Assembly: GCA_963827655.1 (NCBI GenBank)
Contig: CAWHCF010000044.1
Span: 71,242 to 135,241, forward strand
Length of the DNA stretch: 64,000 nucleotides
Direction: 5' to 3'
DNA from: an uncultured Acidobacteriota bacterium
Lineage (GTDB): Bacteria > Acidobacteriota > UBA6911
Shown: one piece after another, positions 31,221-51,368 of the stretch
How positions within the stretch are numbered: position 1 is the first letter of the stretch
How the letters are laid out: the number at the start of each line of letters is the position of its first letter
Position numbers and translations under genes: made by a program
Notes under the pieces: generated by a model
What the model was told of the DNA's origin: nothing
Databases searched by the model: none
The model's input: only the letters and a program-made list of their open reading frames with translations

Positions 31221-32126
31221 ATGAAAAAGGAACTTATTCCAGAGCCGCCCCGCCTGGTCGCGACGGGTATCAACGGACGACCAAACCGGACGGGGCAGTT
31301 GCGTAATCTGTTCTCCACAAAATTACTCACAGACCTGGTTTACGTCCCCCGAAGGTTCTTGGAGACCGTGCTAATCCAGGTACTGACTACCGACGAAAAG
31401 GCTCGTCTAAGCCGCTTCCTGTTCAATGTGTTTCCCAAGGCTCCAGGCGAAGCAGTTCCCGTTTGGGGAGAGACGCTCGCTCCGTGGGAGGAAACCTGGT
31501 TTCGTCGCCGATTGCCCGCTCCACCAGCTCGCGTTCTCCTTGGCGGATGTGGAGCCGGTAGAGAAGTGGTGGCGCTGATGAAGGAAGGCTTCCACGTTGA
31601 TGCCTTCGACCCCGCGCCAAATCTCGTCTCCTCAACTAAATCAGCCGTCGGCGACAAGGCCCGCATCTTAACCTTTGGATATGAGGAACTTTCCGCAGCT
31701 GTGCTTGACAACACCTCCGGACCCGCTTCCTCTCTTGAAAAGTACTATGATGCGGTACTCCTGGGCTGGGGCAGCCTGACGTGCCTGATGGATCCCACGG
31801 AGCGGATGCGCCTCCTTCGTGCGCTCGACCTCATATGCCCAAAAGGCCCAATACTGGCTAGCTTCTGGTGTACGAATGGATATTCCCCAAGGAAACCCAG
31901 ACGACACCATACTGAACGCCTTGGCCGCGCCCTAGGCGTTGCGCTGGCCAAGCTCCGAGGCGTGCGGGCGGAGACCGCCTCCCAAGAGCACTTCATGTCT
32001 CACAGTGGCTTTGGCCATGTATTTGCTCCAGAAGAAATCGAACAGCTTGGAACCACGATACGGAGAAGCGTCATTTGGGATTGCGATGATACCGATTACT
32101 CACACGTGACGTTCGTTGCGCAATGA
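31221..32126 (+). CDS. Class I SAM-dependent methyltransferase-like protein
   Basis: Motif I VLLGGCGAGREVVALMKEGFHVDAFDPAP, then an acidic post-I residue and motif II-like YDAVLLGWGSL. SD AAAGGA before the ATG at 31221. The track start 31164 extends into poor sequence. Confidence 0.55.
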   Translation: MKKELIPEPPRLVATGINGRPNRTGQLRNLFSTKLLTDLVYVPRRFLETVLIQVLTTDEKARLSRFLFNVFPKAPGEAVPVWGETLAPWEETWFRRRLPAPPARVLLGGCGAGREVVALMKEGFHVDAFDPAPNLVSSTKSAVGDKARILTFGYEELSAAVLDNTSGPASSLEKYYDAVLLGWGSLTCLMDPTERMRLLRALDLICPKGPILASFWCTNGYSPRKPRRHHTERLGRALGVALAKLRGVRAETASQEHFMSHSGFGHVFAPEEIEQLGTTIRRSVIWDCDDTDYSHVTFVAQ

Positions 32127-32279
32127 CGGAACACATGTCTGACTGCAATGGACCTCATTACCGCGCTCATTCTCCCAGTCTGCGGCTCCGGTCTAACAGA
32201 AACCGGTCCGACGATTTGCCCGACGTTGCATGCTGAACCCCTATCGGTTGATCATCTGCGACTGAAAGGGAGTCTACCC

Positions 32280-33377
32280 ATGCAGATCACGAATATAACT
32301 GCTGACCGACGCGAAGACTGGAATGCATTTGTAGCGCGAGAACCATCTTTTGCTCTCTTACAATCTTGGAAATGGGGCGAACTCAAAGAAAAGTTGGGCT
32401 GGAAGGTTTTTCGAATTGCAGCAGAGGAGGATGGGCAAATTCTGGCTGGCGCTCAGATGCTTGTTAGGTCTATGCCGCTAATACCGTTGGCCAGTATAGC
32501 CTATATCCCTCGAGGTCCTTTAGGCTGCTGGTTGGATGACACAATCAAACCTCAACTGTTATCCGAGTTCCATCGCATCGCTAAAAATCATCGAGCCGTC
32601 TTTCTAAAAATTGAGCCGTCAATGCCAAATGGTCCGGATGTCAATCAGGCGTTGGAACAGCACCATTTCCAGCCCAGTTTCTATGGCAATCACTCCCGGG
32701 CTACTATCATATTGGATTTGAGGCAAGATCTGGATGATGTGTTGAAGCAAATGCGTAGGAAGACCCGTCAGTACATCAGGCTAGCAACTCAAAGAGGTGT
32801 TGTTGCTCGTGAAGGCACCGCAGAAGACTTGCCGGCTTTTTATGATCTGATGAAAATAACTGGTAAACGAGCCTCATTCTCTCCTCGCACCTACGATTCC
32901 TATAAACTCGAATGGCAGACATTTAAAGAAAACAACCAAGCCATATTACTCATGGCATACAAGGACGATCGGTTGTTGGCTGGGCGCATGATCTTTCGCT
33001 TTGGCACTCATGCCGCGGAATTTTACGCCGGTTCGTTAGATGAGTATACCGATTTGCACCCAAACTATTTACTCGCTTGGGAAGCCATAAAATGGGCCAA
33101 GGCCCAAGGTTGTCATAGTTACGACTTGTGGGGTATTCCTCAGGAAGTTGGTCAGGCAGTATATGATGGGGGAGACCTCCCTACGTCAAATCGCCGAGAT
33201 GGTCTATGGGGTGTGTACCAATTCAAACGAGGTCTCGGTAAGCGAGTAGTGTTTTATGCCAAAACGTGTGATAGCGTATATTCACCACTACTATACTGGA
33301 TGTTGCATAAAGCATGGCCATTGTTTAAAAGAAATGTCCTCCGAATCCTACTGCGCAACCGCTCCAATACGGGGTAG
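32280..33377 (+). CDS. FemAB-family (Acetyltransf_6-like) aminoacyl-transferase-type protein, polysaccharide-locus associated
   Basis: Two-GNAT-lobe FemAB pattern (ITADRREDWNAFVAREPSFALLQSWKWGELKEKLGWKV ... GAQMLVRSMPL ... AAEFYAGSLDEY ... YDLWGI). SD AAAGGGAG before the ATG at 32280. Confidence 0.7.
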   Translation: MQITNITADRREDWNAFVAREPSFALLQSWKWGELKEKLGWKVFRIAAEEDGQILAGAQMLVRSMPLIPLASIAYIPRGPLGCWLDDTIKPQLLSEFHRIAKNHRAVFLKIEPSMPNGPDVNQALEQHHFQPSFYGNHSRATIILDLRQDLDDVLKQMRRKTRQYIRLATQRGVVAREGTAEDLPAFYDLMKITGKRASFSPRTYDSYKLEWQTFKENNQAILLMAYKDDRLLAGRMIFRFGTHAAEFYAGSLDEYTDLHPNYLLAWEAIKWAKAQGCHSYDLWGIPQEVGQAVYDGGDLPTSNRRDGLWGVYQFKRGLGKRVVFYAKTCDSVYSPLLYWMLHKAWPLFKRNVLRILLRNRSNTG

Positions 33378-33930
33378 ATGATAAAGAAGGTTGATTATTG
33401 TTAGCGAGGACAAGATTGGAAACCGTTTGCTGCGAATGTCAGACAGGTTAGGCTATGACACTCGGTCAACCTCTTGCGGCCAGCAGGTCACCCAATATCT
33501 AACTTCCCGGCGGCGGTTTCGAGCCGGATTTTCAACAGCCGTCACCGCAACATCCGGACATGCCAGACGGCATGCCTGGACTTTCCTCGATTTGACGGAA
33601 CCCCTCCGAAGCAAACTCAAGACGACCAAAGCGTGGATTTACGGCCGCCACGACGGAGCTCATTGGTCCGGGGCTGGCAGTCTAATTTTCGCAGACGTGC
33701 TGGCCACAGAACTCCTTCGGGTTATCGGTCCGACGACACCGCCAAAGCGCCTGAAAAAAACCTGATAAACCGGCAGCCGACTCTAAACTCTTCTTGTCTA
33801 CCGAGAAGCCGTCAGACCGCGCGGCACGTTCAAGTAGTTGCAACTAAGGGCGGGTTATCGTCTCTTATGGAAGTGCTGAACGTCGTTGATCTGAGCTGCA
33901 CCGTGACGCGTACGACCCGATGTTGATACT

Positions 33931-34827
33931 ATGTCCGACCGAAAACCATTGATAAGCATAGGAATGCCGGTATACAACGGCGAAACCCATTTGTGCCAGG
34001 CTCTGGATTCCCTGCTCGCCCAGAGCTATGAAGACTTCGAGATACATATCTCCGACAATGCTTCGACCGATCGCACGGGCGAAATCTGTCGTTCCTACCG
34101 ATCGATCGACAAGCGCGTTCACTACCACTATGATCCCAATCACGTCGGAGTACTCGCTAACTACCACCGCGCTTTGAATCTGACGTCGAGCGAATACTTC
34201 ATGTGGGCGGCGGCCGATGACTGCTGGTCGGCCAACTACGTCGAGACCCTGATGGAATGCCTGCTGGCGCGACCGGAGGCAGCGCTGGCGGCAGGCCGCA
34301 CCCTCTATATCGACGGAAAAGGCAACCGGCGCACGTCCGACCCGGACGACGCTCCGGCCCGTAATCCCGGCAACGGAATCAGCACGGCCAGGCAGCTGCT
34401 TGAACAACATGCCGCAGGATGGTTGCACGGCGTATACCGACGTGACCCATTGCTGAAGTCTCTCCCCACGTTTCTTACGACACATCCATGGGGGAGCGAC
34501 GTCGTCTTTTTATTGGAGCTGTGTCTTACCAGCGAAGTCACCGGCTCCGACACCGCAGTCATGTACAAACGCGTCTCGGATCTCAATAACAGCCATGTCA
34601 CCTTACCCAAGACGCCACGACAGATTGTCGGATGGCAATGCGGGTACGCAGCCGCTCTGATGCGGGTCATCCTCAATAGCCCGATCTCTGCGAAGGAAAA
34701 ACAGGATCTGATCAAGACATACTTCTTTTATCTAAAGAGGCTCTACTTCTGGAGTGGTATGACAACGTGGCTCAAGACGTGGATCAGAGCCGGGGGTCAC
34801 TGGCTGATTCGAATCGATCGAACCTGA
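33931..34827 (+). CDS. Family 2 glycosyltransferase
   Basis: ISIGMPVYNGETHLCQALDSLLAQSYEDFEIHISDNASTDRT (GT2 N-terminal DxD-type fold), DDCWS motif. Confidence 0.85.
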   Translation: MSDRKPLISIGMPVYNGETHLCQALDSLLAQSYEDFEIHISDNASTDRTGEICRSYRSIDKRVHYHYDPNHVGVLANYHRALNLTSSEYFMWAAADDCWSANYVETLMECLLARPEAALAAGRTLYIDGKGNRRTSDPDDAPARNPGNGISTARQLLEQHAAGWLHGVYRRDPLLKSLPTFLTTHPWGSDVVFLLELCLTSEVTGSDTAVMYKRVSDLNNSHVTLPKTPRQIVGWQCGYAAALMRVILNSPISAKEKQDLIKTYFFYLKRLYFWSGMTTWLKTWIRAGGHWLIRIDRT

Positions 34828-34845
34828 CATTTTATAGAGAACAGA

Positions 34846-35424
34846 ATGCCAAGCAATCCTTCACTAACCGTAGTGTTGCCCGCCCACAACGCAGAAGCGA
34901 CGATTGCTCCTGCGATCGCGAGTACTCTGAATCAGAGCTACTCGGATTTTGAATTGTGGGTGCTCGAAAACGGGTCCACTGACGCCACGGCGGAAGTAGC
35001 AAAGTCGTTCTCAGACCCGAGGGTGCGGGTTTTTGAGCTCGGTCCCGTAGGATTCCAAGGGGCGCTGCAATACGCCATCGAGAATTCAGAGTCGGAGTGG
35101 CTGGCGCGCATGGACGCCGACGATCTGATGTTTCCCCACCGGCTGAAAGTGCAGATGCAGGTCATCGCGCAGCATCCGGAGCTCGTCTTCGTCGCCAGCC
35201 ACTATGCCCTCCTGACGCCTTTTGGCAGCATGTTCGAGCGGCTCTTAACGGTTCCGTCGAGCGAGGTCGATAGTTCGAGACTGAGCAAAGGCCGCTTTTT
35301 CGCCGATCCGTCCACGATCTTTCGGCGCCAGATAGCGCTGGATGCTGGCGGTGTCGACCCGGAATTTACCTCGGGCGACGTTCCGCTGTTGTTTCGTCTG
35401 TTAAGCGTATGGGAAAGGGTTTGA
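34846..35424 (+). CDS. Family 2 glycosyltransferase, apparently truncated or frameshifted (C-terminal GT2 motif continues in the +1 frame from about 35404)
   Basis: LTVVLPAHNAEATIAPAIASTLNQSYSDFELWVLENGSTDAT ... ARMDADD. The reading frame stops at 35424, but the +1 frame reads EIAEPLYLYRIQPNSM (typical GT2 C-terminal block). That frame then stays open into neuB. Confidence 0.65.
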   Translation: MPSNPSLTVVLPAHNAEATIAPAIASTLNQSYSDFELWVLENGSTDATAEVAKSFSDPRVRVFELGPVGFQGALQYAIENSESEWLARMDADDLMFPHRLKVQMQVIAQHPELVFVASHYALLTPFGSMFERLLTVPSSEVDSSRLSKGRFFADPSTIFRRQIALDAGGVDPEFTSGDVPLLFRLLSVWERV

Positions 35425-35842
35425 AATCGCTGAACCGCTTTACCTCTATCGCATCCAGCCGAATTCGATGTGCCGAAGCACAGACTTTCGGCGCCAGGGA
35501 CTTCGAGCGCGCGCCAAGTATGCCCCTGAAACCGTCGATCCTTCGGCACAAGCCAGGGACGAAGTCAGCGCCTGGGCTTTTATTCTAGGGCTGGAGCTCT
35601 TGGCCCGGAATGGACCGGGTGTCCGCCAGGCGGCGGACTACCTCGAAGCAAACAGGAACAAAGGCGAATTGGGCCAGATGGCTGAGCTACTTCCCGACGG
35701 CTGGGCTATCAATACTACAGATTGTGGGACTGCTCCGGGTTCCGGTACCGGCACAGGCCCGATTGGGAAACTCTTTTCAAGCCTCTTATGGAACCGGAGC
35801 CGCGCGAAATCCCCGGACGTACGCTCGTTGAAACTTGTTAGT

Positions 35843-36928
35843 ATGAAAAGTGCTTCGGGCGAAATCTCCTCATTCGTCGGATCAAAAGTGAACACCAATA
35901 GCAATCAACCCATAGAGAACCAGGACACTTCGTGCCTGATCGTCGCAGAGGTGGCTCAGGCACACGACGGCAGCCTCGGCATGGCCCACGCCTATATAGA
36001 TGCGGCAGCAAACGCCGGAGCCGACGCAATCAAGTTCCAGACCCATATCGCCGCGGCGGAATCGACTCCAGGAGAGCCGTGGCGCGTAAAGTTCAGCCCG
36101 CAGGACGCGACCCGCTACGACTACTGGAAGCGAATGCAGTTTACCGAAGACCAGTGGCGAGGTCTCAAGCGCCACGCTTCGGAGCGCGGCTTGAAGTTTC
36201 TCAGCTCCCCTTTTTCTCTCGAGGCTGTACAGCTCCTCAATCGTGTAGGAGTCACAGCCTGGAAGGTGGCTTCCGGCGAGGTTAACAACACCTCGATGTT
36301 GCAGTGTATGGCTGCCACGGGTCTGCCCATACTTCTGTCGACCGGGATGAGTCCTCTGCCCGAAATCGATTTCGCTGTAGATCGAGTGAAGCAATATGGC
36401 CTGCCCCTTACGCTGCTGCAGTGCACCACGGCCTACCCCTGTCCGCCGGAAAAGGTCGGGCTGAACCTGATACCGTTTTTCCGGGCGCGTTATGGCTGCC
36501 AGGTCGGCCTGTCGGATCACTCGGGAACCATCTACGCCGGTCTTGCGGGCGCCGTTCTTGGGATCGCTGTTCTGGAAGTGCACGTCACTCTCAGCCGGGA
36601 GATGTTCGGACCCGACGTTCCGGCCTCGATTACGACCACCGAGCTGCGCCAACTGGTCGCCGGCATCCGCTTCATAGAGAAGATGATGGCGAATCCGGTC
36701 GACAAGGATGCCATGGCAGTGGAGATGGCGCCTTTGCGGAACCTCTTTACCAAGAGCATTGTTCTCTCATCGGACTTGCCTGCGGGCACCGTGCTGCGAA
36801 AAGAACACTTGACCATCAAGAAGCCAGGAACCGGCATTCCCGCCGACAGGCTACCCGAACTCGTAAGCCGCACGCTAAAACGAGCGGTAACCGCTAACAG
36901 CTTGCTTTCGGAAGACGACCTTGCCTAA
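35843..36928 (+). CDS. neuB: NeuB/PseI/LegI-family nonulosonic (sialic-type) acid synthase with C-terminal SAF domain
   Basis: CLIVAEVAQAHDGSLGMAHAYIDAAANAGADAIKFQTH (NeuB N-terminal signature), then LSDHSG, and a SAF domain (VLSSDLPAGTVLRKEHLTIKKPG). The track ORF starts at 35468; its first 125 codons are GT2 run-on and linker, so Met at 35843 is used. Confidence 0.8.
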   Translation: MKSASGEISSFVGSKVNTNSNQPIENQDTSCLIVAEVAQAHDGSLGMAHAYIDAAANAGADAIKFQTHIAAAESTPGEPWRVKFSPQDATRYDYWKRMQFTEDQWRGLKRHASERGLKFLSSPFSLEAVQLLNRVGVTAWKVASGEVNNTSMLQCMAATGLPILLSTGMSPLPEIDFAVDRVKQYGLPLTLLQCTTAYPCPPEKVGLNLIPFFRARYGCQVGLSDHSGTIYAGLAGAVLGIAVLEVHVTLSREMFGPDVPASITTTELRQLVAGIRFIEKMMANPVDKDAMAVEMAPLRNLFTKSIVLSSDLPAGTVLRKEHLTIKKPGTGIPADRLPELVSRTLKRAVTANSLLSEDDLA

Positions 36929-38180
36929 TTCGCTACGCCGTAAAATATGTGTTGTTCTGGTTGACCGGGCTAACTATGGCCGCCTGAAGCCGGTCATGAA
37001 GGCTATCGCAGACCGGCCAGAGCTTGAACTCCAGGTTCTTGCCGCCGGAACGATGGTCCTGGAACGCTTTCAGCAGCCTGTGCACGTTGTGAAACAGGAC
37101 GGCTTCTCTGTGGACGGCGAGATCTACATTGAACTGGAAGGCTCCACCCCGGCCACCATGGCAAAATCCGTCGGTTTCGGCGTCGTGGAGTTCGCAAGCG
37201 AGTTCCAGCGGCTCAAACCGGATCTGGTGCTGGTCATCGGCGATCGATACGAGGCGCTGGCGGCCGCTATCGCTGCTGCGTATATGAACATCTGTATCGC
37301 CCACATACAGGGTGGCGAGGTTTCCGGATCGATTGACGAAAGCGCGCGCCATGCGATCACACGATTTGCGCATTTCCATTTTCCGAGCACGAGGCGTTCC
37401 GCGGAGTATCTGGTTCGCATGGGAGAAAATCCGAAGACGATTCTCGCCCTAGGGTGCCCCAGCAGCGATATCGCTCGCGACCTCGATCGAACGCTTCCGC
37501 CCTCAGCGATCAATGCCCTGGGCAGCGGCGCGGCGATCGATCTCTCCGATGCGTTTCTCCTGGTGGTCTTTCATCCCACGACCACGGAATACGGAGGAGA
37601 GCGCCGGCAGATGGAGGAGGTTCTCGAGGCCCTCGATAACATCCAGCGTCAGACCGTTCTCCTCTGGCCGAACATTGATGCCGGAGCCGATCACATCAGC
37701 AAGGCGATTCGAACCTTTCGCGACCGGGTGAAACCAGCCTGGCTCCATGTCATAACGAACCTGAGCCCGGAGGATTATCTGAAGGTGCTGGCCCATGCCT
37801 CCTGCGCCGTCGGGAACTCCAGCAGCTTTGTGCGCGATGCCAGCTATTTCGGAACGCCGGTGGTTTTAGTGGGAAACCGGCAGGATGGACGCGAGACCGA
37901 CCAGCACGTCATGCCCGTGCCTCCTCTGGCCGCGGAGATCACTGCCGCAATACGCGAGCAACTTGCGCATGGACCCTATGCTCCCAGCAGCCTTTACGGA
38001 GATGGACATGTCTCCGAACGAATTGCCGAGGCGCTCAGCCGCCTCACTCCCTATGTTCAGAAGCGCCTGAGCTACATGGGGCAAGGTAAAGCCGAGTTTG
38101 TCGAGCGCGCTTCCCAAACCACGGATCTCAAATCGAGCGACGATCTTGCCTCAAGCTGGGCGCTGCATTCTTCGGATTAG
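36921..38180 (+). CDS. neuC: UDP-N-acetylglucosamine 2-epimerase (hydrolysing), NeuC family
   Basis: KICVVLVDRANYGRLKPVMKAI ... DLVLVIGDRYEALAAAIAAAYMNICIAHIQGGE ... HFHFPST, the NeuC/Epimerase_2 pattern. TTG start; overlaps the neuB stop by 8 nt. Confidence 0.8.
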   Translation: MPNSLRRKICVVLVDRANYGRLKPVMKAIADRPELELQVLAAGTMVLERFQQPVHVVKQDGFSVDGEIYIELEGSTPATMAKSVGFGVVEFASEFQRLKPDLVLVIGDRYEALAAAIAAAYMNICIAHIQGGEVSGSIDESARHAITRFAHFHFPSTRRSAEYLVRMGENPKTILALGCPSSDIARDLDRTLPPSAINALGSGAAIDLSDAFLLVVFHPTTTEYGGERRQMEEVLEALDNIQRQTVLLWPNIDAGADHISKAIRTFRDRVKPAWLHVITNLSPEDYLKVLAHASCAVGNSSSFVRDASYFGTPVVLVGNRQDGRETDQHVMPVPPLAAEITAAIREQLAHGPYAPSSLYGDGHVSERIAEALSRLTPYVQKRLSYMGQGKAEFVERASQTTDLKSSDDLASSWALHSSD

Positions 38181-38274
38181 CGGGATCGCGCCTTTGGAGT
38201 GCGCAAGCTTGCTTGCGCCTTGTGCAACGGCAGCTTGCTGCCGGTTGTAAGAAATGAATGGGATCAGCGCTCGA

Positions 38275-38982
38275 ATGAAGGTTCTGGCAATTGTACCTGC
38301 GCGCGGCGGATCGAAAGGGATTCCGCGCAAGAATATCGCGCCCCTCATGGGAAAGCCGCTCCTGGCCTATACGGCCGAAGCGGCCCGGGCCGCCGGGCGT
38401 TTGACCCGGGCGCTTCTCTCAACTGAGGACGAAGAGATCGCTCGCGTAGGACGACAGTATGGTCTGGACGTGCCGTTTCTGCGGCCGCCGGAACTGGCGC
38501 GCGACGATACTCCGACGATCCCCGTATTACAGGACGTGGTTCGGAAGCTTGAAGCCGTGGGGGATCGTTACGATGCAATCTTCGTGCTCCAGCCGACCAA
38601 CCCGCTCCGGCGAGCGCAAGACATCGACGGCGCCATTGAGCTCCTGGAACGCACAGGCGCAGATTCAGTGATCTCGTTCGTTGATGTAGGGGAAAAGCAT
38701 CCGGCCCGAATGAAGATCGTTACTGCCGAGGGCAGGGTCATGAATCCGTCTTTCGCCGAGCAATTCGAGGGTCAGCCCAGGCAGGCTCTCTCGAAGCTTT
38801 ATCTGCGCGAGGGCTCGATCTACCTTACCCGCAGGTCCGTACTCATGGATCAAAGCTCGATTCAGGGATGCGACTGCCGGGCCTGGCTCATCCCCGAGGA
38901 ACGAGCGTGCAACATTGATAACCCGTTTGACCTTTTTCTGGCTGAACAGATCATGAGGTACCATGCCGTCCAAGCGACCTAG
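38275..38982 (+). CDS. neuA: N-acylneuraminate (CMP-nonulosonate) cytidylyltransferase
   Basis: MKVLAIVPARGGSKGIPRKNI (CTP_transf_3 P-loop) and the conserved FVLQPTNPLR block. Start at 38275 preferred over 38254. Confidence 0.85.
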   Translation: MKVLAIVPARGGSKGIPRKNIAPLMGKPLLAYTAEAARAAGRLTRALLSTEDEEIARVGRQYGLDVPFLRPPELARDDTPTIPVLQDVVRKLEAVGDRYDAIFVLQPTNPLRRAQDIDGAIELLERTGADSVISFVDVGEKHPARMKIVTAEGRVMNPSFAEQFEGQPRQALSKLYLREGSIYLTRRSVLMDQSSIQGCDCRAWLIPEERACNIDNPFDLFLAEQIMRYHAVQAT

Positions 38983-39958
38983 AATCCTCGTCGCAGAATC
39001 GAGCGGATTCTGTCCGAGGGCGGCAGAACTGCTGCGCGAGGCCGGTGACCTGACCCTGGCCGACCTCGACCGCAACGGTCTCCTGGCGGCTGTCCGCGAC
39101 ATCGATATTCTGTGGGTCCGCCTTCGGCATCGGATCGACCGCCAGCTTCTCGACGCGGCGCCCGAGCTGAAGATTATTGCGACGCCCACAACCGGCCTCA
39201 ATCACATAGATCTGAACGAGAGCAGCGACCGCGGCATCCAGGTCCTGTCTCTTTCGGGAGAGACCGCCTTTTTGAACGACATCCGCGGCACTGCCGAGCA
39301 CACCCTTGCGTTGATGCTTGGCCTGATCCGTCACCTCCCGGCAGCCGCGACCCACGCCCGATTCGGCGGCTGGAATCGAGATCGGTTCAAGGGCCGCGAA
39401 TTGCATGGCAAGACAGTTGGAGTCGTCGGTTATGGCCGGCTCGGGCGTATCGTGAGCCGATACTTGAGAGCGTTTGATACGGTCGTCCTGACCGCGGACC
39501 CGGATATCACCCCGGCATCGGTCGAGCCGCCGGTCATGCTGGTTCCGCTCGCCCGATTGCTTGGCGAATCGAACCTGGTGACACTGCACGTGAACCTCTC
39601 GGAGAAGACACGCGGGTTCTTCGGGCGCGAGCAATTCTCGGCCATGAAAGAGGGCGCCTGGTTTATCAATACCTCCCGCGGAGAATTGGTCGATGAGACG
39701 GCGCTGCTCGATGCCCTGAAATCGGGGCATCTGGCCGGGGCCGCCCTGGATGTGATTTCCGGCGAGGGTTCGGAGCGGATGGAGAATCATCCAGTCGTGG
39801 CCTATGCCCTTGAACACGAGAACCTCATCCTGACGCCGCATATTGGCGGCTGCACCGAAGAGTCGATGGCGCAGACCGAAGTGTTCCTGGCAGAAAAAGT
39901 CCTGATGTTTTCAAAATCCTTCGCCTTTGCTTGGCGACTTCGACACGACGCCCCATAG
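38963..39958 (+). CDS. D-isomer-specific 2-hydroxyacid dehydrogenase family protein (NAD-binding)
   Basis: GKTVGVVGYGRLGRIVSRYL (Rossmann GxGxxG) and the catalytic-domain pattern ...NTSRGELVDETALLDAL ... AALDVI ... LTPHIGG. Overlaps the neuA stop. Confidence 0.8.
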   Translation: MPSKRPRILVAESSGFCPRAAELLREAGDLTLADLDRNGLLAAVRDIDILWVRLRHRIDRQLLDAAPELKIIATPTTGLNHIDLNESSDRGIQVLSLSGETAFLNDIRGTAEHTLALMLGLIRHLPAAATHARFGGWNRDRFKGRELHGKTVGVVGYGRLGRIVSRYLRAFDTVVLTADPDITPASVEPPVMLVPLARLLGESNLVTLHVNLSEKTRGFFGREQFSAMKEGAWFINTSRGELVDETALLDALKSGHLAGAALDVISGEGSERMENHPVVAYALEHENLILTPHIGGCTEESMAQTEVFLAEKVLMFSKSFAFAWRLRHDAP

Positions 39959-39993
39959 AAACGTGAAGTGATGAATCCCGGAGCTTCTCCCTT

Positions 39994-41462
39994 ATGAGTT
40001 TATCTTTGCAGACTGATTCTGACGCGGCTACTGCTGAAGTCGCGGCTGCCCGCGGCACCAACCCTAACCCCAGGGTCCTCGTTTCGATTCCCAGCGGTTT
40101 CCAACTGCGCCAGTTTGTTCACTCCGGCGTCCTCGATCTGCTGCTAAAGCGCGGTTTCCAGGCTCTGATCGTGAGCCCGAACGGGATCGGACGAGGGCTT
40201 TGCCGAGCAAGTTGATGAGCGCGGCGTCGAAGTCTGCGCGGTAAATCTTAATAATCAGGGACCGCTGAGCTGGCGCTACTGGCTGGCACGTCACCAGATA
40301 TTGCTGAATGGCCAACCAACCGAAACCATGCGCCAGGCAATGGTGGATTTCCGGAAGCGTCATTTCGGGCTCGCCCTTGACGGCCGATATCTGCAACGCC
40401 CTGATGCGCCTTTTTCCCGGATTGCGAAAAAAAGCTCTTCAATGGGAATACCTGCTTCTTCGGCGCGCAGACCTGGAAACCCTCCTGTCGACGAAGCCAG
40501 TCGACCTGATCCTTTTAGGAAGTCCGGGGTTCATGGAGCAGGACGCGCTCCTGCTGCATGCCGGCGTCCGGCGAGGAATTCCGGTGGCGGCCGCGATCAT
40601 GAGCTGGGACAATCTTTCCTCAAAAGGCCTGATTAACCCTCACCCGGATCGCCTCCTGGTCTGGAGCGATTACATGAAGCGCGAGGCGGTGGATCTTCAA
40701 GGATTTTCAGCGGAACGCGTGGTCGAGACCGGCGCGCCGCTCTACGATATCTTCGCCAACGCCCGCAGGTTTGGTACGCGCCGCGAGAATCTGGAGGGTC
40801 TCGGGCTCGATCCAGAACGGCGGTTGATTTTCTACGGCACCAATCACGCCGCGTTCTTTCCCGATGAGATCGAGGTGGTCAAGCGCGTGGCGCAATGGGT
40901 CGAAGAGGATAGCCTGGGAAAGCCTTGCCAGCTCGTAATCCGGCTTCATCCGCAGGCAATCACGGGTCCATACAAACTTCAAACCGACCCCTACCTCAGC
41001 CTGGCATCGAACCGGGTCAAGGTCGAGTTTCCACCGGTTCGCAATAGCAGCCTTCCCTGGGAGCTTCCGAAGAGCGATATCGAGCACCTCGTGAGGCTGT
41101 TACGGGACGCTGACGTGGTCATTAACACGGCTTCGACCATCTCGATAGATGCAGCGGTCCTCGACCGTCCGGTGGTCTGCGTCGCTTACGACCCGGCCGG
41201 CGATCTGCCCTACGAGAAGTCTGTGCGTCGTTATTACGACTTCACCCACATGGCGAACGTCGTTCGGGCCGGAGCAGCACAGCTCGCCAAATCGCCCGAA
41301 GGGCTGCGCGAAAAGATTGTTAACTATCTCGAAAAACCCGACTTGGATCGCCCTGGAAGGCAACGCATCGTCAAGCAGCAGTTCGGGCGCGTAGACGGGC
41401 TGAGCGCGGCGCGCCTGGTCGAGCAAGCCGCGGCATTGATCTCGAAGGGAAAAACGAAATGA
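39994..41462 (+). CDS. Uncharacterised two-Rossmann (GT-B-like) surface-carbohydrate biosynthesis protein; N-terminal 70 codons in a separate ORF (apparent frameshift near 40210-40310); candidate nonulosonate transferase
   Basis: ORF 39994..40215 (PRVLVSIPSGFQLRQFVHSGVLDLLLKRGFQALIVSPN) reads as the N-terminal Rossmann strand-helix of the product continued by ORF 40308..41462 (LILLGSPGF ... VAAAIMSWDNLSSKG ... RLHPQ ... ADVVINTASTISIDAAVLDRPVV). No confident family assignment from sequence alone. Confidence 0.4.
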
Positions 41463-42574
41463 AGGTGCTGGTAACGGGAGGAGCCGGGTTTATAGGTTCG
41501 CACCTCGTGGACGGGCTGCTTGAGCGCGGATACGACGTTCGGATTCTCGATGCCCTGGTTCCGCAAGTACACGGGACAGAAAGAAAGCGGCCGGCCTATC
41601 TCGATCCCCGGGCGGAGCTTCTGGTCGGCAGCATCGAGGATGCCGCTTCAGTATCGCAGGCCCTGCAGGGCGTCGAACGCGTGATACACCTGGCTTCCGC
41701 CGTCGGGGTCGGGCAATCGATGTACCAGATCGTCGACTATTGCAGAACCAACGTCATGGGCACTGCGACGTTGTTGCAGGCCATCGTCGATTCCAAGATA
41801 CCTCTCAAGAGCCTGGTAGTAGCGTCTTCAATGTCGGTCTACGGGGAGGGGCGGTATCGCGCCGGCGACGGGGAGCTCGTCAATCCGGAACTTCGCAGTG
41901 AGGCACAGCTGGCAGCAAGCGACTGGGAAATGCGCGACCAGGCCGGAAATGCGCTTCAGCCGGTTCCCACGGATGAAGCAAAACCGCTGGCGCCGGCATC
42001 GGTTTACGCGATCAACAAGAGGGATCAGGAAGAGATGTGCCTGAAAGTTGGCACGGCCTACGGCATCCCGACTACGGCCTTGCGTTTTTTTAATGTCTAT
42101 GGTTCCCGCCAGGCGCTCTCGAACCCCTACACTGGAGTGGCGGCAATTTTCTGCGCCCGGCTCCTGAACGATCGACCTCCGCTGGTATTCGAAGATGGTT
42201 TGCAAAGACGGGATTTCGTCCACGTGCAGGACGTCGCGCAAGCGATTATTTCGGCGGCCGAGAAACCTTTACCAGGCGAGGCCATCAATATCGGCTCGGG
42301 AACGGCGGTCTCGGTGATCGAGATCGCTGAGATGCTGTCGTCCGAAATGAAGAAAGATATCAGCTCCCGCATCCTTGGGAAGTACCGCAACGGCGATATC
42401 CGTCACTGCTTTGCGGATATTTCGAAGGCGCGGCAACTGTTAGGCTGGATCCCTTCCAGGGCGTTCCGCGACGGGATTCCGGAGCTGGTGGAATGGGTGC
42501 AATCGCAGCGGGATGCGCGCGACGGCGCTGAAAGCGCCTGGGGCGAATTGCAACAACGCGGGTTGTTGTCGTAA
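41459..42574 (+). CDS. NAD-dependent epimerase/dehydratase (extended SDR; nucleotide-sugar 4-epimerase/4,6-dehydratase-like)
   Basis: MKVLVTGGAGFIGSHLV (GxxGxxG) and the YAINK catalytic YxxxK. ATGA overlap with the upstream gene. Confidence 0.85.
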   Translation: MKVLVTGGAGFIGSHLVDGLLERGYDVRILDALVPQVHGTERKRPAYLDPRAELLVGSIEDAASVSQALQGVERVIHLASAVGVGQSMYQIVDYCRTNVMGTATLLQAIVDSKIPLKSLVVASSMSVYGEGRYRAGDGELVNPELRSEAQLAASDWEMRDQAGNALQPVPTDEAKPLAPASVYAINKRDQEEMCLKVGTAYGIPTTALRFFNVYGSRQALSNPYTGVAAIFCARLLNDRPPLVFEDGLQRRDFVHVQDVAQAIISAAEKPLPGEAINIGSGTAVSVIEIAEMLSSEMKKDISSRILGKYRNGDIRHCFADISKARQLLGWIPSRAFRDGIPELVEWVQSQRDARDGAESAWGELQQRGLLS

Positions 42575-42604
42575 GCAGTTTTTGGGCAAGAGAAAGGCCT
42601 GTTT

Positions 42605-43813
42605 GTGCTCACGGTGGTCTCAAAGAGTTTCGCTCCTCAGGTGTCAGGGACGTCTATTCTGTTGGCGAACCTTCTGTCGGGCTATCCAGGCACGCTGAGC
42701 GCAGTTGCTGGATCTAACCTGTATGGCAAATCCGATCCTTCGTTCCTGCCCCCCTGTCCAACGAAGTATCTTGCTTTGCCCCGGATTCTAGCCGGCGTGT
42801 ACGATCGCCTGAGAATAAAATCTCCAGCGACAACCTGCCGCGCCCTTCGACCATCCGTTCGAAGAGTGTTGAGAAAACTTGGCACAAGCGTCGTTTTCGG
42901 CGCGTACCCCTGCGATGACTACTTTGTGGCGACCTTTCTTGCCGCGCGCGATCTGGGCCTCCCTTTTTACGCCCATATGCACGATCTCTGGATAGAGAAC
43001 CTGACTCCCGGCTCGCCTCTAGCTCGCTTCGCCGAAAAATGGGAGCCCATCATAATCCGAGAGGCCCGGCGGGTGCTGTGCATGACCGAAGCCATGCAGA
43101 AGTACTACGAAAACAAGTACGGGATACGAACAGATCTGCTGCCTCACACTATTCGAGAACAGGACTATTTGAACGTCACTCCGAATGCGCCGCCGGCAAT
43201 GCCCGCACCGACAGTCCTGTTTGTCGGGGCGGTGAGCCCGCCGATGAACCTCGACGCGCTCAAGGTGCTGGCCGCCGCATCCGAGCTCCTGCCTTCGGGG
43301 TACGAACTGCTGTTTTGCACATCCATGGACCTTCAAGCTCTGAAACAACAAGGTATCCAATCGAGTCGTTTGCGGGCCCAGTATGTCTCTCGAGCGGAGG
43401 TGCAACGTCTTCAGTCCGGAGCCCATGTTCTGATTGCGCCTCTGTCCCACAAGAATGGTTCCATCGAGGAAGTTCGCACCGTTTTCTCCACCAAACTGTG
43501 CGAGTACCTGGTTTCGGGACGTCCCATTATTGTGTTTGCGCCGGAGGATTCGTACCACGCCGAATCCGCAAGAAAGAATGGCTGGGCTTACGTCGTCACG
43601 GAAGATTCACCTGCCGCGCTTGCGGAAGCCATCGTGAAAGTAGTGACGAAGGAAGACCTGGCCGCCGGCCTGGTTCGCGGAGCACTGCAAGAGGCTTACT
43701 CCAGGAGCGCAAGGCGGCATGCGGAGCGCCTGCATGAATGGGTTCTTGAAGACACTCGCACTGCATGGTCACTCGAAGGCCAGCGGTCGGGGAAACAATT
43801 GGTTGCTTCCTGA
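42605..43813 (+). CDS. GT-B glycosyltransferase (family 4/1-like)
   Basis: C-terminal domain with the E..STKLCEYLVSGRPIIVF motif (EX7E-type). GTG start. Confidence 0.7.
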   Translation: MLTVVSKSFAPQVSGTSILLANLLSGYPGTLSAVAGSNLYGKSDPSFLPPCPTKYLALPRILAGVYDRLRIKSPATTCRALRPSVRRVLRKLGTSVVFGAYPCDDYFVATFLAARDLGLPFYAHMHDLWIENLTPGSPLARFAEKWEPIIIREARRVLCMTEAMQKYYENKYGIRTDLLPHTIREQDYLNVTPNAPPAMPAPTVLFVGAVSPPMNLDALKVLAAASELLPSGYELLFCTSMDLQALKQQGIQSSRLRAQYVSRAEVQRLQSGAHVLIAPLSHKNGSIEEVRTVFSTKLCEYLVSGRPIIVFAPEDSYHAESARKNGWAYVVTEDSPAALAEAIVKVVTKEDLAAGLVRGALQEAYSRSARRHAERLHEWVLEDTRTAWSLEGQRSGKQLVAS

Positions 43814-43848
43814 AGTGGCAGGAAGTTTCCGGCACCGAGCAAGGCCAC

Positions 43849-45160
43849 ATGATACGCCCACAGAATAGATTCGCCGCCCCCAGGAACATGGCAGGAAGAG
43901 CCTGGTGGATTGCACCAACCAGAACGGCTTCAATTATCGGAAGTCCGGTGAGGATCGTTTCTGAAAAGAGCATTCCCACCAGCGTGCGCTGGCTTTTGCT
44001 GCTGTTCGTTTTCTCGATGCCGTTCGAGATGTATCCCTCGAGATTCACATCAGGCTCGCTCTCCCTGGCGAAAATTGCCGGCGCCTTGTTTATCGCCGTT
44101 TACCTTACCCACTACAACCCCTTCTCTCGGACTCGATCCCTCCCCCGTTTTCTCGGGCCATGTGGTGGTTCGCCGGATATCTCGCCGTTTTCGCACTGAA
44201 CGGCTTCTTTCTCGCGCCGGGATTGTTTGACAGTCTTTCTTTCGCGTTTTCTCACAATGGTGCAGCTGGTGGTCTTCTTCTGGATCGCTTCCGATCTGCT
44301 GAGAGACGAAGGCCTGGCAAGAAAAGCCTTTCAAACTTATGCGCTAGCCACATCTGCCGTGGCGCTCGGAATGCTTGTTGGTCTTACCGGATTATCCGTG
44401 ACATACAAGACCAACGTCGGAGCAAGAATGTCATCGATGGGGTTCAACCCGAATACCCTGTCGGTCATAATAGTTCTGGCTGTGCTTGATACTGATGGGT
44501 TTGTACCTCATCTCGCCTCCGCTGCGATTACAGGAAGGTCTGGCTCGTGGCCTTGGCCCTGCCTCTACTTCCGGCTCTTGTAAGCACCGGGCTCCCGCAA
44601 CGGAATCGTGATTTTCGTCTTAGGATTCCTGGTCTATCTGCTGCCCTCACGCCGCTATAGAGGCAAGCCGACGGTGCCGATCCTGGCCATGCTGGCGATA
44701 GCCGCCATCGTCTACTTCATTTCCCAGAATTCGACGACATTAACCCGCTTCCAGCAGACTTACGAAAGAGGGGACTTCTCGGGACGGCTGGGTATTTACA
44801 CCGAAGCAATCGAAATGATCTCCGAGCAACCCCTTTTCGGTTGGCGGCCCGTGGAGTTCTGGTATGAGTTTGGAAGACGTGTGTACGGGTTTTGGCGGAT
44901 AAGGGATGCTCACAACACCTTATCTGCATCTGTTGCTGGAAGTCGGCTTCGCCGGGGCTATTCCTTTCATGATTGGACTCTGGTTCTGCGCCCGCGCAGC
45001 GTGGAGAGGGCGCAACGGCACTTTTGGCCTTCTTCCTCTCGCGCTGGTGCTGGCGGTGCTCGCTGGCAGCATGTCAGGCACAGATATCGCGCGCAAGCAT
45101 CTATGGTTTGTCCTGGCAATTGCGGTGGCTACTGAACCCGTCGTTGCCAGGCGCCGGGCA
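43849..45160 (+). pseudogene. Wzy/O-antigen-ligase-like polymerase, fragmented into at least 4 ORFs (43765..44199, 44227..44583, 44608..45135, 44906..45265)
   Basis: Multi-TM pieces. The diagnostic Wzy_C block R.AHNTYLHLLLEVGFAGAIPF is split across two frames (...WRIRDAHNTLSAS in one, MLTTPYLHLLLEVGFAGA in the other). Confidence 0.6.
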
Positions 45161-45414
45161 ACCGAGTGGAGTCCCGCTAAAGCCCCGGCCTTGCGGACAT
45201 ACCCGGCGGGCACACTCCCGCAACACCCTCCCCATGTGCGGGATCGCGGGAAGCGTACATTTTGACCAGGAGTTTGCTCACGATTCAGAGTCGGCCGAAC
45301 CGGCTTCTTACGAGCGGCAGCAAGCTGCCGCAACACAAGTGACGCAACGCAACGGCTTGCGACACTCCAAAGCGGGCTCGCTTGCGCAGTGCTGTAGCAG
45401 CATCGTAGAGCCAA

Positions 45415-46873
45415 TTGCAACTGCTTCAAGAGATGATTTACGACTGGAAAATGGAGCTCTACTGGCGCCTGCCGGTTTACCTGCAGGAGGCAGGAATGAG
45501 CCTTTATGCAGGCCGCCTCGAGCGGCTCTACTACGGCCCCGGATTCGAAGAGTGGCGCCGGCAGTGCCAGAAGTGGCAGAACTGGTCCCGCACGGACGCG
45601 GAAACCTGGCAGAGCGACCAACTTCGTTCGGTCGTGGCACTCGCTGCGACTCGCGTCCCCTACTACCGCGAACAATGGAAGAACCTGGATTACAAATCGG
45701 TACGGTCGGCAGCCGACCTCCGCATCTTGCCGCGTTTGGACAAACAGTCGATACGTCTGAACGAGCAGGCATTCCTGGTCGAGGGACTGAATCCAAAATC
45801 GCTCTGGATGGAGAAGACCAGCGGCACCACCGGGACTTCTCTGCGAATTTACTGGCCTATGTCCATGCTGCCAAAGTTCTGGGCCGTGATGGAAGTGATG
45901 GTCCGAAATATCGCCGGCGTAGGACAGGATATTCCACGCGCCGTAATGGGGGGCCGGCCCATTGTTCGAGGCAGCGCCGGGCAACCCCCTTTCTGGCGCT
46001 TCAACCGCCGATGGCGGCAACTGTACCTGTCGAGCTATCACGTGTCTCCGGACACCGCCCAGGGCTACATCGGGGCCCTTCACCAATACGGTTCCCAATG
46101 GATGACCGGGTACGGCTCGGCCATTGCCGCCCTCGACAGAAAGCGCTCTGGGTGCGGCCATTCAACCTTTTCGACTTGGTAACGTGATTGTGAGCGGTGA
46201 CACGCTTCTTCCCGGGATGCGCCTCAGCATCGAACGCTTCTTTCAGTCGAAGTGTTTCGACCACTATGGGCAGTGCGAGGGAGTCGCCATGGCTATGGAG
46301 TGTCCCAACGGCCAAATGCATGTCATTCCTGCCATCGGCATCCTGGAGATTTTGCGAGAGGATGGCACGCCCTGTGTTGCCGGCGAGACCGGCGAAATGG
46401 TCGCCACCGGTCTTCTGAACGACGCGATGCCTCTGATTCGCTACCGGCTGGGAGATTATGCCGCCTGGGCCGAGACTCAGAACTGCGAGTGCGGCAATCC
46501 CCAACCCATCATCACGAATCTGGAAGGACGAGTGGATGATTATCTCGTCGCGCGCGATGGACGGAAAATCGGACGGCTGTCGACGGCGGTGAAACGAAGT
46601 CCCACGATCCATTCGGCCCAGATCGTGCAGGACGAACCAGGGCATGCGTTCCTGCTGGTGCGCCCGGGAGAAGGCTATCGGTCCGCAGATGCCGTTGCCG
46701 TTCGTGATGACATTCAGGAAAGGATTGGCGCGTTCTCCATCGAGATCGTGGAAGTTTCTGAAATTCCCAAGACGCGCCAGGGTAAGACTTCTCTGGTCGT
46801 GCGTCTTGCAGATCGGCCGGGAACACGGGAAATCTACGAGCCAAGTGCTCAACCGCGCGACGAGCGACGCCGG
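45415..46873 (+). CDS. Phenylacetate-CoA ligase-like (PaaK / coenzyme F390 synthetase / CapK family) adenylate-forming enzyme, with an apparent frameshift near 46130-46180
   Basis: EKTSGTTGTSLRIYW (AMP-binding P-loop) in ORF 45415..46182. The C-terminal half (GLLNDAMPLIRYRLGDYAAWAE...CECG ... EIPKTRQGK) is in ORF 46124..47356 in another frame. Confidence 0.7.
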
Positions 46874-48060
46874 ATGGTCCACGCCGTGCTAACGACCAAC
46901 CCGTCATCCCGTACAGCTGAGGCCCCGTCAAAGCGTCGATACCGTGTTCTGGTCTTTTCGGTAATTGCGCTGGTCTTCGGTACTTCGGTTTCCCTGCTCC
47001 TGGCAGAGTTTGCGGTTCGCCTTTTCAATCCTCAAACACTGACGTCGGACGTTGTCGAGTGGGATCCCGACGTCGACTACCGCTTGCGGCCGAACGCGCG
47101 GGGGCGGATGGTCTCGCCGGAATTCTCGGCAGAAATCCGCGTGAATTCTCTGGGATTTCGGGGTCCGGAAATCTCTCCGGTGAAGAAACCGGGGGTTCGC
47201 AGGGTTCTGTTCCTGGGCGATTCCTTCATGTTCGGGGCCGGACTCAAGGAGCACGAAACGCTACCCTATGCGGTCAGCCGCGAGTTGGAGCGGAGACACG
47301 CCGGCGATTTTGAGGCCATCAATGGCGGGCGTATACGGCTACCAAACCGCCAATGAGTTAGAATTCTTCACGAAGTTCGGAGTTCCACTCCACCCCGATA
47401 TTGTCGTGATTCTGGTCATGACCCACGACATGGTTCAGAACACAGACTGGTATGAGTGGACCGGCGACGGGCAGCTGAAGAGAAGACCCTTTACCAGCCA
47501 ATACACGCAAAGCCGGGCTATAACGCGTTATTTGCCCGGGGCTTCCTGGCTCCGAGAACATAGCCACCTGTTCAAATTCGTCGGCACGAGGGTTCTCCCA
47601 ACAGTCACTGCGGGCGAAAACCCTAAATCGGAACTCGCCGGTGGTTCCCCGCGAGCCAAGCCCGCAACCGGTCAAACACGACCAATTCTCGCCTGAGTTC
47701 TACCAGGAGGAGAGCGGGGCTTTTCGGGTTACCACCGAGTTGCTGGCCAGGCTTGTCGACGTCTGCAAGGAGAACGGCGCCAAGTGCATTCTCTTGACAC
47801 TTGGGGGGACAGCGGACGAAAACATGGCGGGAGGGCTTTCGCCCAGGGAAATGCTGCCGCACGAGCAGCTGATTGCAGCCGGATTCAAAGTGGGCTTTTC
47901 GGACGCCCTGGCCCTGCCTACGATTCTCGCCGGTTACAGGGGAAATGAAAATCTGTTCTTCCCGAAGGATCTCCATTGGACGGCGCACAGCGACGAGTTT
48001 CGTCGCTCCCGCGGTTGCGGACGCAATCCTCCGGGTCTCCGGTCAGGATCATCCATGAAC
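46874..48060 (+). pseudogene. SGNH-fold hydrolase/acyltransferase paralog 3 (paralog of 28457..29749), in frame with the upstream ligase and broken by at least 3 frameshifts
   Basis: RVLFLGDSFMFGAGL (block I) in ORF 46124..47356. The next frame has GVYGYQTANELEFFTKFGVPLHPDIVVILVMTHD (compare paralog 2 NFGVSGYDTQQEIEFFKAKGIKYRPDIVVVVYVMND). Then DLHWTAH and VAPAVADAILRVSG (DxxH block) lie in two further frames. Confidence 0.55.
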
Positions 48061-48064
48061 AGCG

Positions 48065-49104: not shown

Positions 49105-49130
49105 TTCGCAAAAGATGGAAACTACACCAA

Positions 49131-50034: not shown

Positions 50035-50061
50035 CTCAACCATTTCAACGGATCAATAATC

Positions 50062-51333: not shown

Positions 51334-51368
51334 ACACCCCCGGCCCGTTACTCAATGAGGCAATATCG

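Follow-up and report, generated by a model that had tools for sequence, protein, structure and literature searches.

The window, a stretch of 64,000 nucleotides (nt) from an uncultured Acidobacteriota bacterium (contig CAWHCF010000044.1, positions 71,242 to 135,241), contains a genuine nonulosonic acid (NulO) cassette of known kind, neuB-neuC-neuA, together with two uncharacterised companions, a dehydrogenase coupled to NeuA and a TagF-like candidate transferase. We read the region as a whole as a NulO sub-cluster within a long surface-polysaccharide locus, in which the TagF-like protein would attach the sugar, a reading to which we give a probability of roughly 60%. The original prediction that the three genes form a cytidine monophosphate (CMP)-nonulosonate cassette is borne out by Pfam and NCBIfam family assignments. 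NeuB has the domains of a NeuB-family nonulosonate synthase (PF03102, 222 bits; SAF, PF08666, 35 bits), its best match in the PDB is N. meningitidis NeuB (172 bits vs 126 for C. jejuni PseI), and alignment to 1xuu shows that E25, E134, E234 and the metal-binding His are kept. NeuC scores 356 bits over the full TIGR03568 (NeuC/NnaA) model, above the cut-off of 235.9, and 217 bits on PF02350. NeuA matches PF02348 (CTP_transf_3, 77.8 bits) and reaches 144 bits on the PseF equivalog (cut-off 205.7), and its best PDB matches are the CMP-N-acetylneuraminic acid (Neu5Ac) synthetases 6ifd, 9ftb and 1eyr.

Our main point of comparison is L001, a metagenome contig that is syntenic with window 31231..51491 at 89-94% nt identity and has all its genes intact, in the order GT2, GT2, NeuB, NeuC, NeuA, dehydrogenase, TagF-like protein of 488 amino acids (aa), short-chain dehydrogenase/reductase (SDR) and GT4, followed by Wzy_C, CapK-like, GDSL, GT2, Wzm and Wzt (GT, glycosyltransferase). 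The neuB, neuC, neuA and dehydrogenase genes are real and, apart from the dehydrogenase tail, intact; a walk against L001 finds no broken frame in 35921..39929. The genes of the region are as follows (UDP, uridine diphosphate; PGDH, phosphoglycerate dehydrogenase).

34846..~35846, + strand: GT2 glycosyltransferase (PF00535 on the first piece; 332 aa in the L001 orthologue)
35888..36928, + strand: neuB, nonulosonate synthase (NeuB plus SAF)
36921..38180, + strand: neuC, hydrolysing UDP-sugar 2-epimerase, 419 aa
38187..38243, no strand: interspersed repeat of ~55 nt in the neuC-neuA spacer (~50 genome matches)
38275..38982 (ATG 38254 also open), + strand: neuA, CMP-nonulosonate synthetase, 235 aa
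38963..39971 (open reading frame ends at 39958 as assembled), + strand: PGDH-like D-2-hydroxyacid dehydrogenase (PF02826, PF00389)
39994..41462 (three frames), + strand: TagF-like GT-B protein, candidate transferase (PF04464; 488 aa in intact orthologues)
41459..42574, + strand: SDR, nucleotide-sugar 4-epimerase-like (PF01370; overlaps the TagF-like gene by 4 nt)
42605..43813, + strand: GT4 glycosyltransferase (PF13579, PF13692, PF13439; syntenic in L001, L104 and L105)

The neuB gene starts at ATG 35843 (361 aa) or, as in L001, at GTG 35888 (346 aa). The translational coupling claimed for the three genes stands for neuB and neuC, which overlap by 8 nt, whereas the 20-nt overlap assigned to neuC and neuA is that of neuA and the dehydrogenase gene; neuC and neuA do not overlap and are separated by 73-94 nt, depending on the choice of neuA start. 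In soil metagenomes the repeat in this spacer is covered 76-82x and shows numerous loose ends, and 26 nt of it are missing from L001; it has no match in Rfam, and an Rfam scan of 34-44 kb is empty. What seems to be a related copy sits around 45340-45400. The neighbouring SDR finds 6wjb and 6wj9 as its best PDB matches (titled merely 'NAD-dependent epimerase/dehydratase family protein'), then the UDP-glucose 4-epimerase 4zrm and MoeE5, and scores 143 bits on the LegB model (cut-off 475), so judged by its matches it looks like a 4-epimerase, not a 4,6-dehydratase. Upstream, at window 33391-33926, ~1.3 kb are missing of a 522-aa gene that is present at L001:2325-3893, between a FemAB-like gene and the first GT2; this gene has no Pfam family, and the remnant in the window comprises ~93 C-terminal codons with a ratio of nonsynonymous to synonymous substitution rates (dN/dS) near 1.

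The sugar made by the cassette

Pseudaminic acid (Pse) is excluded by the gene complement, because a NeuC-type epimerase is present and the score of NeuB on the PseI model (TIGR03586) is the lower one (202.5 bits, cut-off 340), and the sugar is thus predicted to belong to the Neu/legionaminic acid (Leg) lineage. The PseB model gives just 44 bits on the SDR. The original statement that the type of sugar cannot be fixed from the sequence holds for Neu versus Leg, where the evidence is split, and Pse can be ruled out. By gene content, the three-enzyme Neu route is favoured. The residues of NeuB speak differently: in the 1xuu alignment Arg314 is replaced by Lys (within KKPGTG) and the Asn that binds the C6-OH of N-acetylmannosamine (ManNAc) by Pro, and with these two replacements the window NeuB lacks the ManNAc-specific residue set of the N. 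meningitidis type. Arg314, an essential residue that binds the N-acetyl carbonyl, is reported to be conserved in SAF-bearing bacterial enzymes (PMC11339185, PMC8208679), and the C6-OH-binding Asn is reported to be missing from non-Neu synthases (PMC11339185). The KKPG motif is common to the whole NeuB clade, with or without the dehydrogenase. To see which residue PseI has opposite Arg314, the SAF domain by itself was compared with the PDB, and antifreeze proteins were the sole matches. As read from the alignment, the Lys and Pro substitutions argue against a textbook ManNAc-specific NeuB. Together, these features bring another or an undescribed NulO close to even odds as the product, leave a Neu5Ac-like product a substantial chance somewhat short of them, and make Leg itself unlikely.

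The NeuA-dehydrogenase pair and the TagF-like candidate transferase

The dehydrogenase belongs to the D-2-hydroxyacid dehydrogenase superfamily (PF02826, 2-Hacid_dh_C, 171.6 bits; PF00389, 58 bits) and scores 217 bits on the SerA PGDH equivalog TIGR01327 (cut-off 454); its best PDB match is 1ygy, the M. tuberculosis PGDH (171 bits). The catalytic triad R239, E/D ~268 and H293 and the motifs NT(S/A)RG, DV..E/D and PH.GG hold across 21 orthologues, and the nicotinamide adenine dinucleotide (NAD) site is intact. In look-ups that started from the dehydrogenase, three of three long contigs place it inside NeuB/NeuC/NeuA clusters, and two of these continue with the TagF-like gene, SDR, GT4 and Wzy_C, as in the window. 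Of 20 loci with both genes, drawn from several phyla, at least 11 show neuA overlapping the dehydrogenase gene, by 4-20 nt; another gene order, NeuB-dehydrogenase-NeuC-NeuA, is found in Longimicrobiales. In a 55-row NeuA tree, the presence of the dehydrogenase requires 7 changes vs 18 in shuffles (0/500 as low), and the window NeuA falls within an all-dehydrogenase clade of 11 rows (SH-aLRT 100), which is support rather than proof because relatedness inflates such clustering.

The partners of this NeuA clade vary. They are a SAF-type NeuB and NeuC in the window and in Pirellulaceae, and a short SAF-less NeuB, a methyltransferase and a CBS-UDP-sugar dehydrogenase in Bacteroidota; Holophagales and Thermoanaerobaculia loci have a NeuB 67-70% identical to that of the window with a different NeuA clade and no dehydrogenase. 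Since the pair rides with different synthases and a similar NeuB occurs without the dehydrogenase, NeuA and the dehydrogenase behave as a module, which by comparison of the loci is conserved and, as predicted from the gene overlaps, translationally coupled across phyla. The Bacteroidota variant (L040:4881-10022, and L037 likewise) runs CBS-UDP-sugar dehydrogenase, NeuA, dehydrogenase, short SAF-less NeuB and methyltransferase, with a TagF-like gene and a Wzx-like flippase next and no NeuC.

The dehydrogenase would most likely work at the 2-oxo/2-hydroxy-acid function or provide a small D-2-hydroxy acid. On the earlier idea that it provides a glyceroyl or lactyl group, the data speak neither for nor against; the loci compared show no conserved partner of the pair for acyl activation or acyl transfer. 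A predicted complex of NeuA and the dehydrogenase scored 0.01, which we take as evidence neither way, and a literature search on 2-hydroxyacid dehydrogenases in NulO clusters found nothing relevant. Some close relatives (L105:1620-5829, L104:3911-6016 and probably L006:1684-6103) carry extra genes between neuB and neuC, an insert that the window does not have: an FkbH-like protein, an 85-aa carrier-protein-sized open reading frame, an unknown protein of ~376 aa and a polysaccharide deacetylase. This insert looks like a device for N-acyl remodelling, e.g., from acetyl to glyceroyl.

The gene after the dehydrogenase had been said to belong to no recognisable family, which does not hold. Its 384-aa frame matches PF04464 (CDP-glycerol glycerophosphotransferase, TagF-like; CDP, cytidine diphosphate) with 28.5 bits, above the gathering score of 22.1, as its only Pfam family, and it scores 34 bits on NF046086 (BFO_1060 family glycosyltransferase), where all of 25 diverse relatives in an alignment of the family match at an E-value ≤1e-3 (best 8e-15; scores 31-34 bits). 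Deletion of the T. forsythia members BFO_1060, Tanf_01245 and TFUB4_00887, which their authors term TagB/GT-B-like, removes the terminal Pse/Leg derivative from the O-glycan (PMC5420450). Invariant residues of the TagF-like family are W204-D205 (in an SWDNLSSKG motif), R316, P319, H418 and R455, and H318 is nearly invariant, giving an R-x-H-P motif.

Structure prediction and a test against TIGR04396 (surface carbohydrate biosynthesis protein) had been suggested as checks. The first came out with a GT-B fold: the AlphaFold2 model of P0001, the nearest database protein to the candidate (488 aa, 96% identical, from a JGI soil metagenome and encoded on L001), has a mean confidence (pLDDT) of 90.2 and a predicted template modelling score (pTM) of 0.89. 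Its nearest structure in an exhaustive comparison is the epimerase NeuC (5zlr, Z 25.4), followed by WecB-type epimerases (23-24), TarL (21.4), MurG (20.8), TagF (19.6), the Kdo transferase WaaA (18.3) and the polysialyltransferase 5wc6 (15.7). The second came out negative for the candidate (17 bits vs 125), and 7 of the 25 relatives match weakly. Foldseek against the PDB gave generic GT-B matches only, e.g., MshA and WecB, and no match in a family-profile search of the PDB was significant (best E-value 3e-4, to a GT28 enzyme). None of the Pfam models of the classical sialyltransferases GT38, GT42, GT52 and GT80 is listed for the candidate, and 5wc6 ranks below many other GT-B enzymes in Z score. 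The modelled fold thus fits a CMP- or CDP-using GT-B enzyme but leaves the donor unfixed.

The neighbourhood of the family was counted in the 80 best loci of GTDB species genomes, within 10 kb of the TagF-like gene and by tblastn with the window's own proteins. A NeuA-like gene is found in 50 of the 80 loci, a NeuB-like gene in 32, the dehydrogenase in 23, a NeuC-like gene in 22 and a DegT-like aminotransferase in 11, and the loci span Planctomycetota, Gemmatimonadota, Acidobacteriota, Myxococcota, Bacteroidota, candidate phyla radiation (CPR) groups, Thaumarchaeota and others; many of those that lack a NeuA-like gene are on short contigs. NeuA is the sole cytidylyltransferase in the window's cluster, and no TagD (glycerol-3-phosphate cytidylyltransferase) reaches the cut-off genome-wide. 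Because NeuA-like neighbours are common, NeuA is alone in the cluster and TagD is missing at cut-off, we consider the TagF-like protein probably a CMP-NulO transferase; with the T. forsythia homology and the GT-B fold, it remains the best transferase candidate, as originally proposed. A family-wide link of TagF-like proteins with Wzm/Wzt export was dropped, as these occur in just 2 and 7 of the 80 loci; for the window's own cluster such a link is possible.

The family is large, with 3,505 representatives at an E-value ≤1e-30 (at least 3,500 clusters at 50% identity). Some members are tandem duplicates, and others are fused with Wzx-like flippases, GT4 or PhyH domains. Double-length (~900-960 aa) or triple-length (1546 aa) members with two to three TagF-like modules (P0217, P0218, P0219, P0228 and P0222) may work as polymerases or as bifunctional transferases. 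In several loci a PhyH-type dioxygenase is fused to a family member or sits immediately before it (P0325; L100:6915-7763; L101:9063-10004). Closer to the host, a search of 50 other genomes from the same GTDB family yielded no TagF-like family member at an E-value ≤1e-20, and a DNA search did not find the cassette in 30 relatives. The NeuB-family genes of same-family genomes are 30-39% identical to that of the window, whereas metagenomic and other-phylum relatives reach 70-98%. Because the family was not found in these same-family genomes, where NeuB is distant, and the closer relatives are in metagenomes and other phyla, we regard the cassette as an accessory module, probably acquired laterally.

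Single-base frame breaks in the assembly

The original prediction took 39994..41462 as one open reading frame; this is refuted, as the interval is 1469 nt long, not divisible by 3, and the gene runs through three stop-to-stop frames (39967..40215, 40175..40636 and 40308..41462) with two extra bases. The coding pieces 39994..40215, 40175..~40385 and 40308..41462 are joined by skipping one base at each of two breaks, one near 40188-40192 and the other near 40379-40383. In agreement, tblastn of P0001 on the window gives three pieces with +1 steps between GIG and EGF and between LAL and VAD. The base at 40379 is missing from contigs of four of four soil-metagenome runs from different studies, the 40188 base from those of two, and the single bases at 35646, 35696 and 39930 from contigs of two soil runs. 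Compared with L001, there are ~25 frame-breaking single extra bases within window genes and only a few positions with missing bases. The extra bases number four or more in the GT2 that precedes neuB (34846..~35846; at about 35404, 35648, 35696, 35795 and 35836 in a frame walk against the L001 protein), 1 in the dehydrogenase tail, 2 in the TagF-like gene and ~20 in 44-50 kb. The base at 39930 shifts the last codons of the dehydrogenase, so that the open reading frame ends at 39958 and the last ~9 residues are rewritten; relatives stop at the equivalent of 39971 (335 aa). At window 44000-50000, genes for a Wzy_C-like protein, a CapK/PaaK-like ligase, a GDSL protein, a GT2 and Wzm are chopped into small open reading frames by the ~20 single extra bases there; all of these genes are intact in L001.

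We consider the frame breaks in the transferase, the dehydrogenase tail and the GT2 to be, in all likelihood, insertion errors of the assembly, because P0001 and the four metagenomes lack the extra bases, there are ~25 such insertions, the rpoB gene of the same assembly is split and dN/dS is low; the genes of the organism itself are therefore probably functional. The essential rpoB falls into two frames (contig C8, about 80900-81014), and three DegT-type genes are also split (C49:141281-142262, C9:46864-47557 and C44:189865-190948), a pattern in keeping with single-base insertion errors throughout the genome. The inserted base and its context vary randomly across the ~25 breaks, which are nearly all +1 insertions. 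Read in the L001 frame, the TagF-like gene has a dN/dS of 0.128 over 488 codons, the GT2 before neuB one of 0.12, and the mended TagF-like, GT2b, GT2c and Wzm genes together range from 0.12 to 0.16, compared with 0.08-0.22 for intact neighbours. CGA-triggered +1 recoding was also considered, since three breaks fall on an in-frame CGA followed by GAN; it was rejected because the intact neuB, neuC, neuA, dehydrogenase and GT4 genes hold 1-7 in-frame CGA codons each and the contexts vary. With so many single-base insertions in this assembly, apparent pseudogenes need checking before they are called gene decay.

Alternative readings and the proposed pathway

If the frameshifts were real, the transferase, the GT2 and much of 44-50 kb would be recent pseudogenes, and the strain would no longer add the NulO to its glycan. 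The clustering of the breaks (~20 in 44-50 kb and 2 in the transferase vs none in neuB-neuC-neuA) would fit such decay, as would the ~1.3 kb of the 522-aa gene that the window lacks and L001 has, and the source reads are beyond inspection. However, the same kind of split in the essential rpoB and in DegT genes elsewhere, the near-uniform +1 steps with a random base, the same dN/dS in broken genes and intact neighbours, and the lack of the extra bases in close relatives from four metagenomes make this reading very unlikely. Also unlikely, though less so, is that the TagF-like protein is a CDP-polyol phosphotransferase, as annotated, or another GT-B enzyme that does not use NulO, with a GT2, a GT4 or a gene elsewhere transferring the NulO. 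PF04464 is the sole Pfam family of the candidate, the P0001 fold matches TarL and TagF, and in 30 of the 80 related loci, e.g., L098, no NeuA-like gene lies within 10 kb; against this stand the many NeuA-less loci that are short contigs, the absence of TagD at cut-off from the genome and of any TagD from the cluster, NeuA as the only cytidylyltransferase nearby and as a neighbour of the family in bacteria and archaea alike, and a homology to the NulO transferases of T. forsythia that is weak yet consistent.

A third alternative, likewise improbable, concerns the sugar itself. The cassette could make legionaminic acid, with NeuC as LegG, NeuB as LegI and NeuA as LegF, and with UDP-diNAc-bacillosamine coming from a dehydratase, an aminotransferase and an acetyltransferase encoded at other genomic sites. 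Around half of the close NeuB homologues carry the JGI label LegI (N,N'-diacetyllegionaminate synthase), a 6-deoxy substrate would fit the loss of the C6-OH-binding Asn, a residue absent from non-Neu synthases (PMC11339185), and the genome holds many DegT-type aminotransferases and SDRs, e.g., an SDR plus a DegT gene on contig C49. Yet the genome search that had been proposed for LegB (TIGR04180) and LegC (TIGR04181) found neither at cut-off in the genome, which is 90% complete (best 187.7 vs 475 and 197.7 vs 420 bits, both outside the cluster); among ~21 related loci with a NeuB at least 49% identical, L085 alone carries a DegT-like gene no more than 10 kb away; and the adjoining SDR resembles 4-epimerases more than 4,6-dehydratases.

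The favoured reading, a NulO sub-cluster whose sugar is attached by the TagF-like protein, has points against it in turn. NeuB scores 298.8 bits on TIGR03569 (NeuB_NnaB), below the cut-off of 399.65, and has the Lys and Pro substitutions; its close relatives are named LegI and NeuB about equally by JGI, and merely 'N-acetylneuraminate synthase family protein' by NCBI. The need for a 2-hydroxyacid dehydrogenase in a pathway that contains a synthase lacks an explanation. For the transferase, the NF046086 matches are far below that model's cut-off of 200 bits, the top structural match is an epimerase rather than a transferase, and we know of no assayed member of the TagF-like family. As for the frame breaks, the public sequencing runs, none with more than 41% of the window's words, did not include the source reads, and the insertions are unevenly spread (0 in the 4 kb from neuB to the dehydrogenase vs ~20 in 44-50 kb).

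On the favoured reading, family membership suggests that NeuC would convert a UDP-sugar to a 2-epimerised N-acyl hexosamine, that NeuB would condense this hexosamine with phosphoenolpyruvate to a nine-carbon 2-keto-3-deoxy acid, and that NeuA would turn the acid into the CMP-sugar. Its fold, weak homology and gene neighbourhood suggest that the GT-B protein of TagF type would take this CMP-sugar as donor and add the NulO onto the growing glycan, and the 4-epimerase-like SDR and the GT4/GT2 enzymes may build the acceptor glycan. The PGDH-like dehydrogenase appears as the fixed partner of the NeuA clade. Because the NeuB clade has lost two ManNAc contacts and the NeuA clade is locked to the dehydrogenase, which rides with different synthases and so may well work at the alpha-keto-acid end that all ulosonic acids share, we tentatively consider, as a joint proposal that we hold to be less likely than not, that the product is an undescribed nonulosonate instead of Neu5Ac and that the TagF-like proteins are a major, overlooked NulO transferase family of environmental bacteria and archaea.

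The de novo sialic acid systems of E. coli K1 (neu) and N. meningitidis (SiaA/SiaC/SiaB) likewise combine these three enzyme families in a coupled operon, and the window resembles them in a NeuC that passes its equivalog, a NeuB that keeps the catalytic Glu and His residues and has N. meningitidis NeuB as its best solved relative, and a NeuA whose best solved relatives are CMP-Neu5Ac synthetases. It differs from them in a NeuB below its equivalog with Lys for Arg314 and Pro for Asn, in a dehydrogenase coupled to NeuA, in the lack of a listed Pfam match to the GT38, GT52, GT80 or GT42 sialyltransferases, and in its host, a soil bacterium for which the 50 same-family genomes searched lack the transferase. 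The LegB-LegC-LegH-LegG-LegI-LegF pathway shares the NeuC-, NeuB- and NeuA-like steps, and automatic KEGG Orthology labels are split between LegI and NeuB, but equivalents of LegB, LegC and LegH are absent from the window cluster, and none is found at cut-off in the genome.

As in T. forsythia (Tanf_01245/TFUB4_00887/BFO_1060; NF046086; Tomek et al. 2017, PMC5420450), a TagB/TagF-like GT-B protein lies beside NulO genes, although only model positions 105-195 align to the window family, at 31-34 vs 200 bits, the partner pathway is of the NeuC/NeuB type rather than Pse/Leg with aminotransferases, and the target is probably a polysaccharide, not a protein O-glycan. With TagF, TarL and TagB the candidate shares PF04464 above gathering, the GT-B fold at Z 19.6-21.4, a predicted cytidine-based donor and an R-x-H-P motif conserved where the C-terminal Rossmann domain begins; unlike in those systems, the cluster has no CDP-glycerol or CDP-ribitol supply genes, and the chemistry would be glycosyl transfer from a CMP-sugar instead of phosphodiester formation. 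The dehydrogenase, in turn, resembles SerA and the glyoxylate/hydroxypyruvate reductases in its two 2-Hacid_dh domains, its GxGxxG...D NAD site and its Arg-Glu/Asp-His triad, and its best solved relatives are PGDHs (M. tuberculosis 1ygy and P. horikoshii 1wwk). It differs from SerA in falling below every equivalog cut-off, in lacking ACT/ASB regulatory domains, in a TTGLNHID motif of its own and in always lying in NulO clusters, usually translationally coupled to NeuA.

The number of NulO transferases described so far is small (PMC5420450). Encoded next to CMP-NulO genes in lineages that range from Planctomycetes to Thaumarchaeota, the large TagF-like family would offer glycobiology a new enzyme class to test, and, if its members are NulO transferases, new tools for sialoside synthesis. 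Furthermore, the conserved NeuA-dehydrogenase pair marks a step in the synthesis of environmental sialic-acid-like sugars that lies outside every described pathway.

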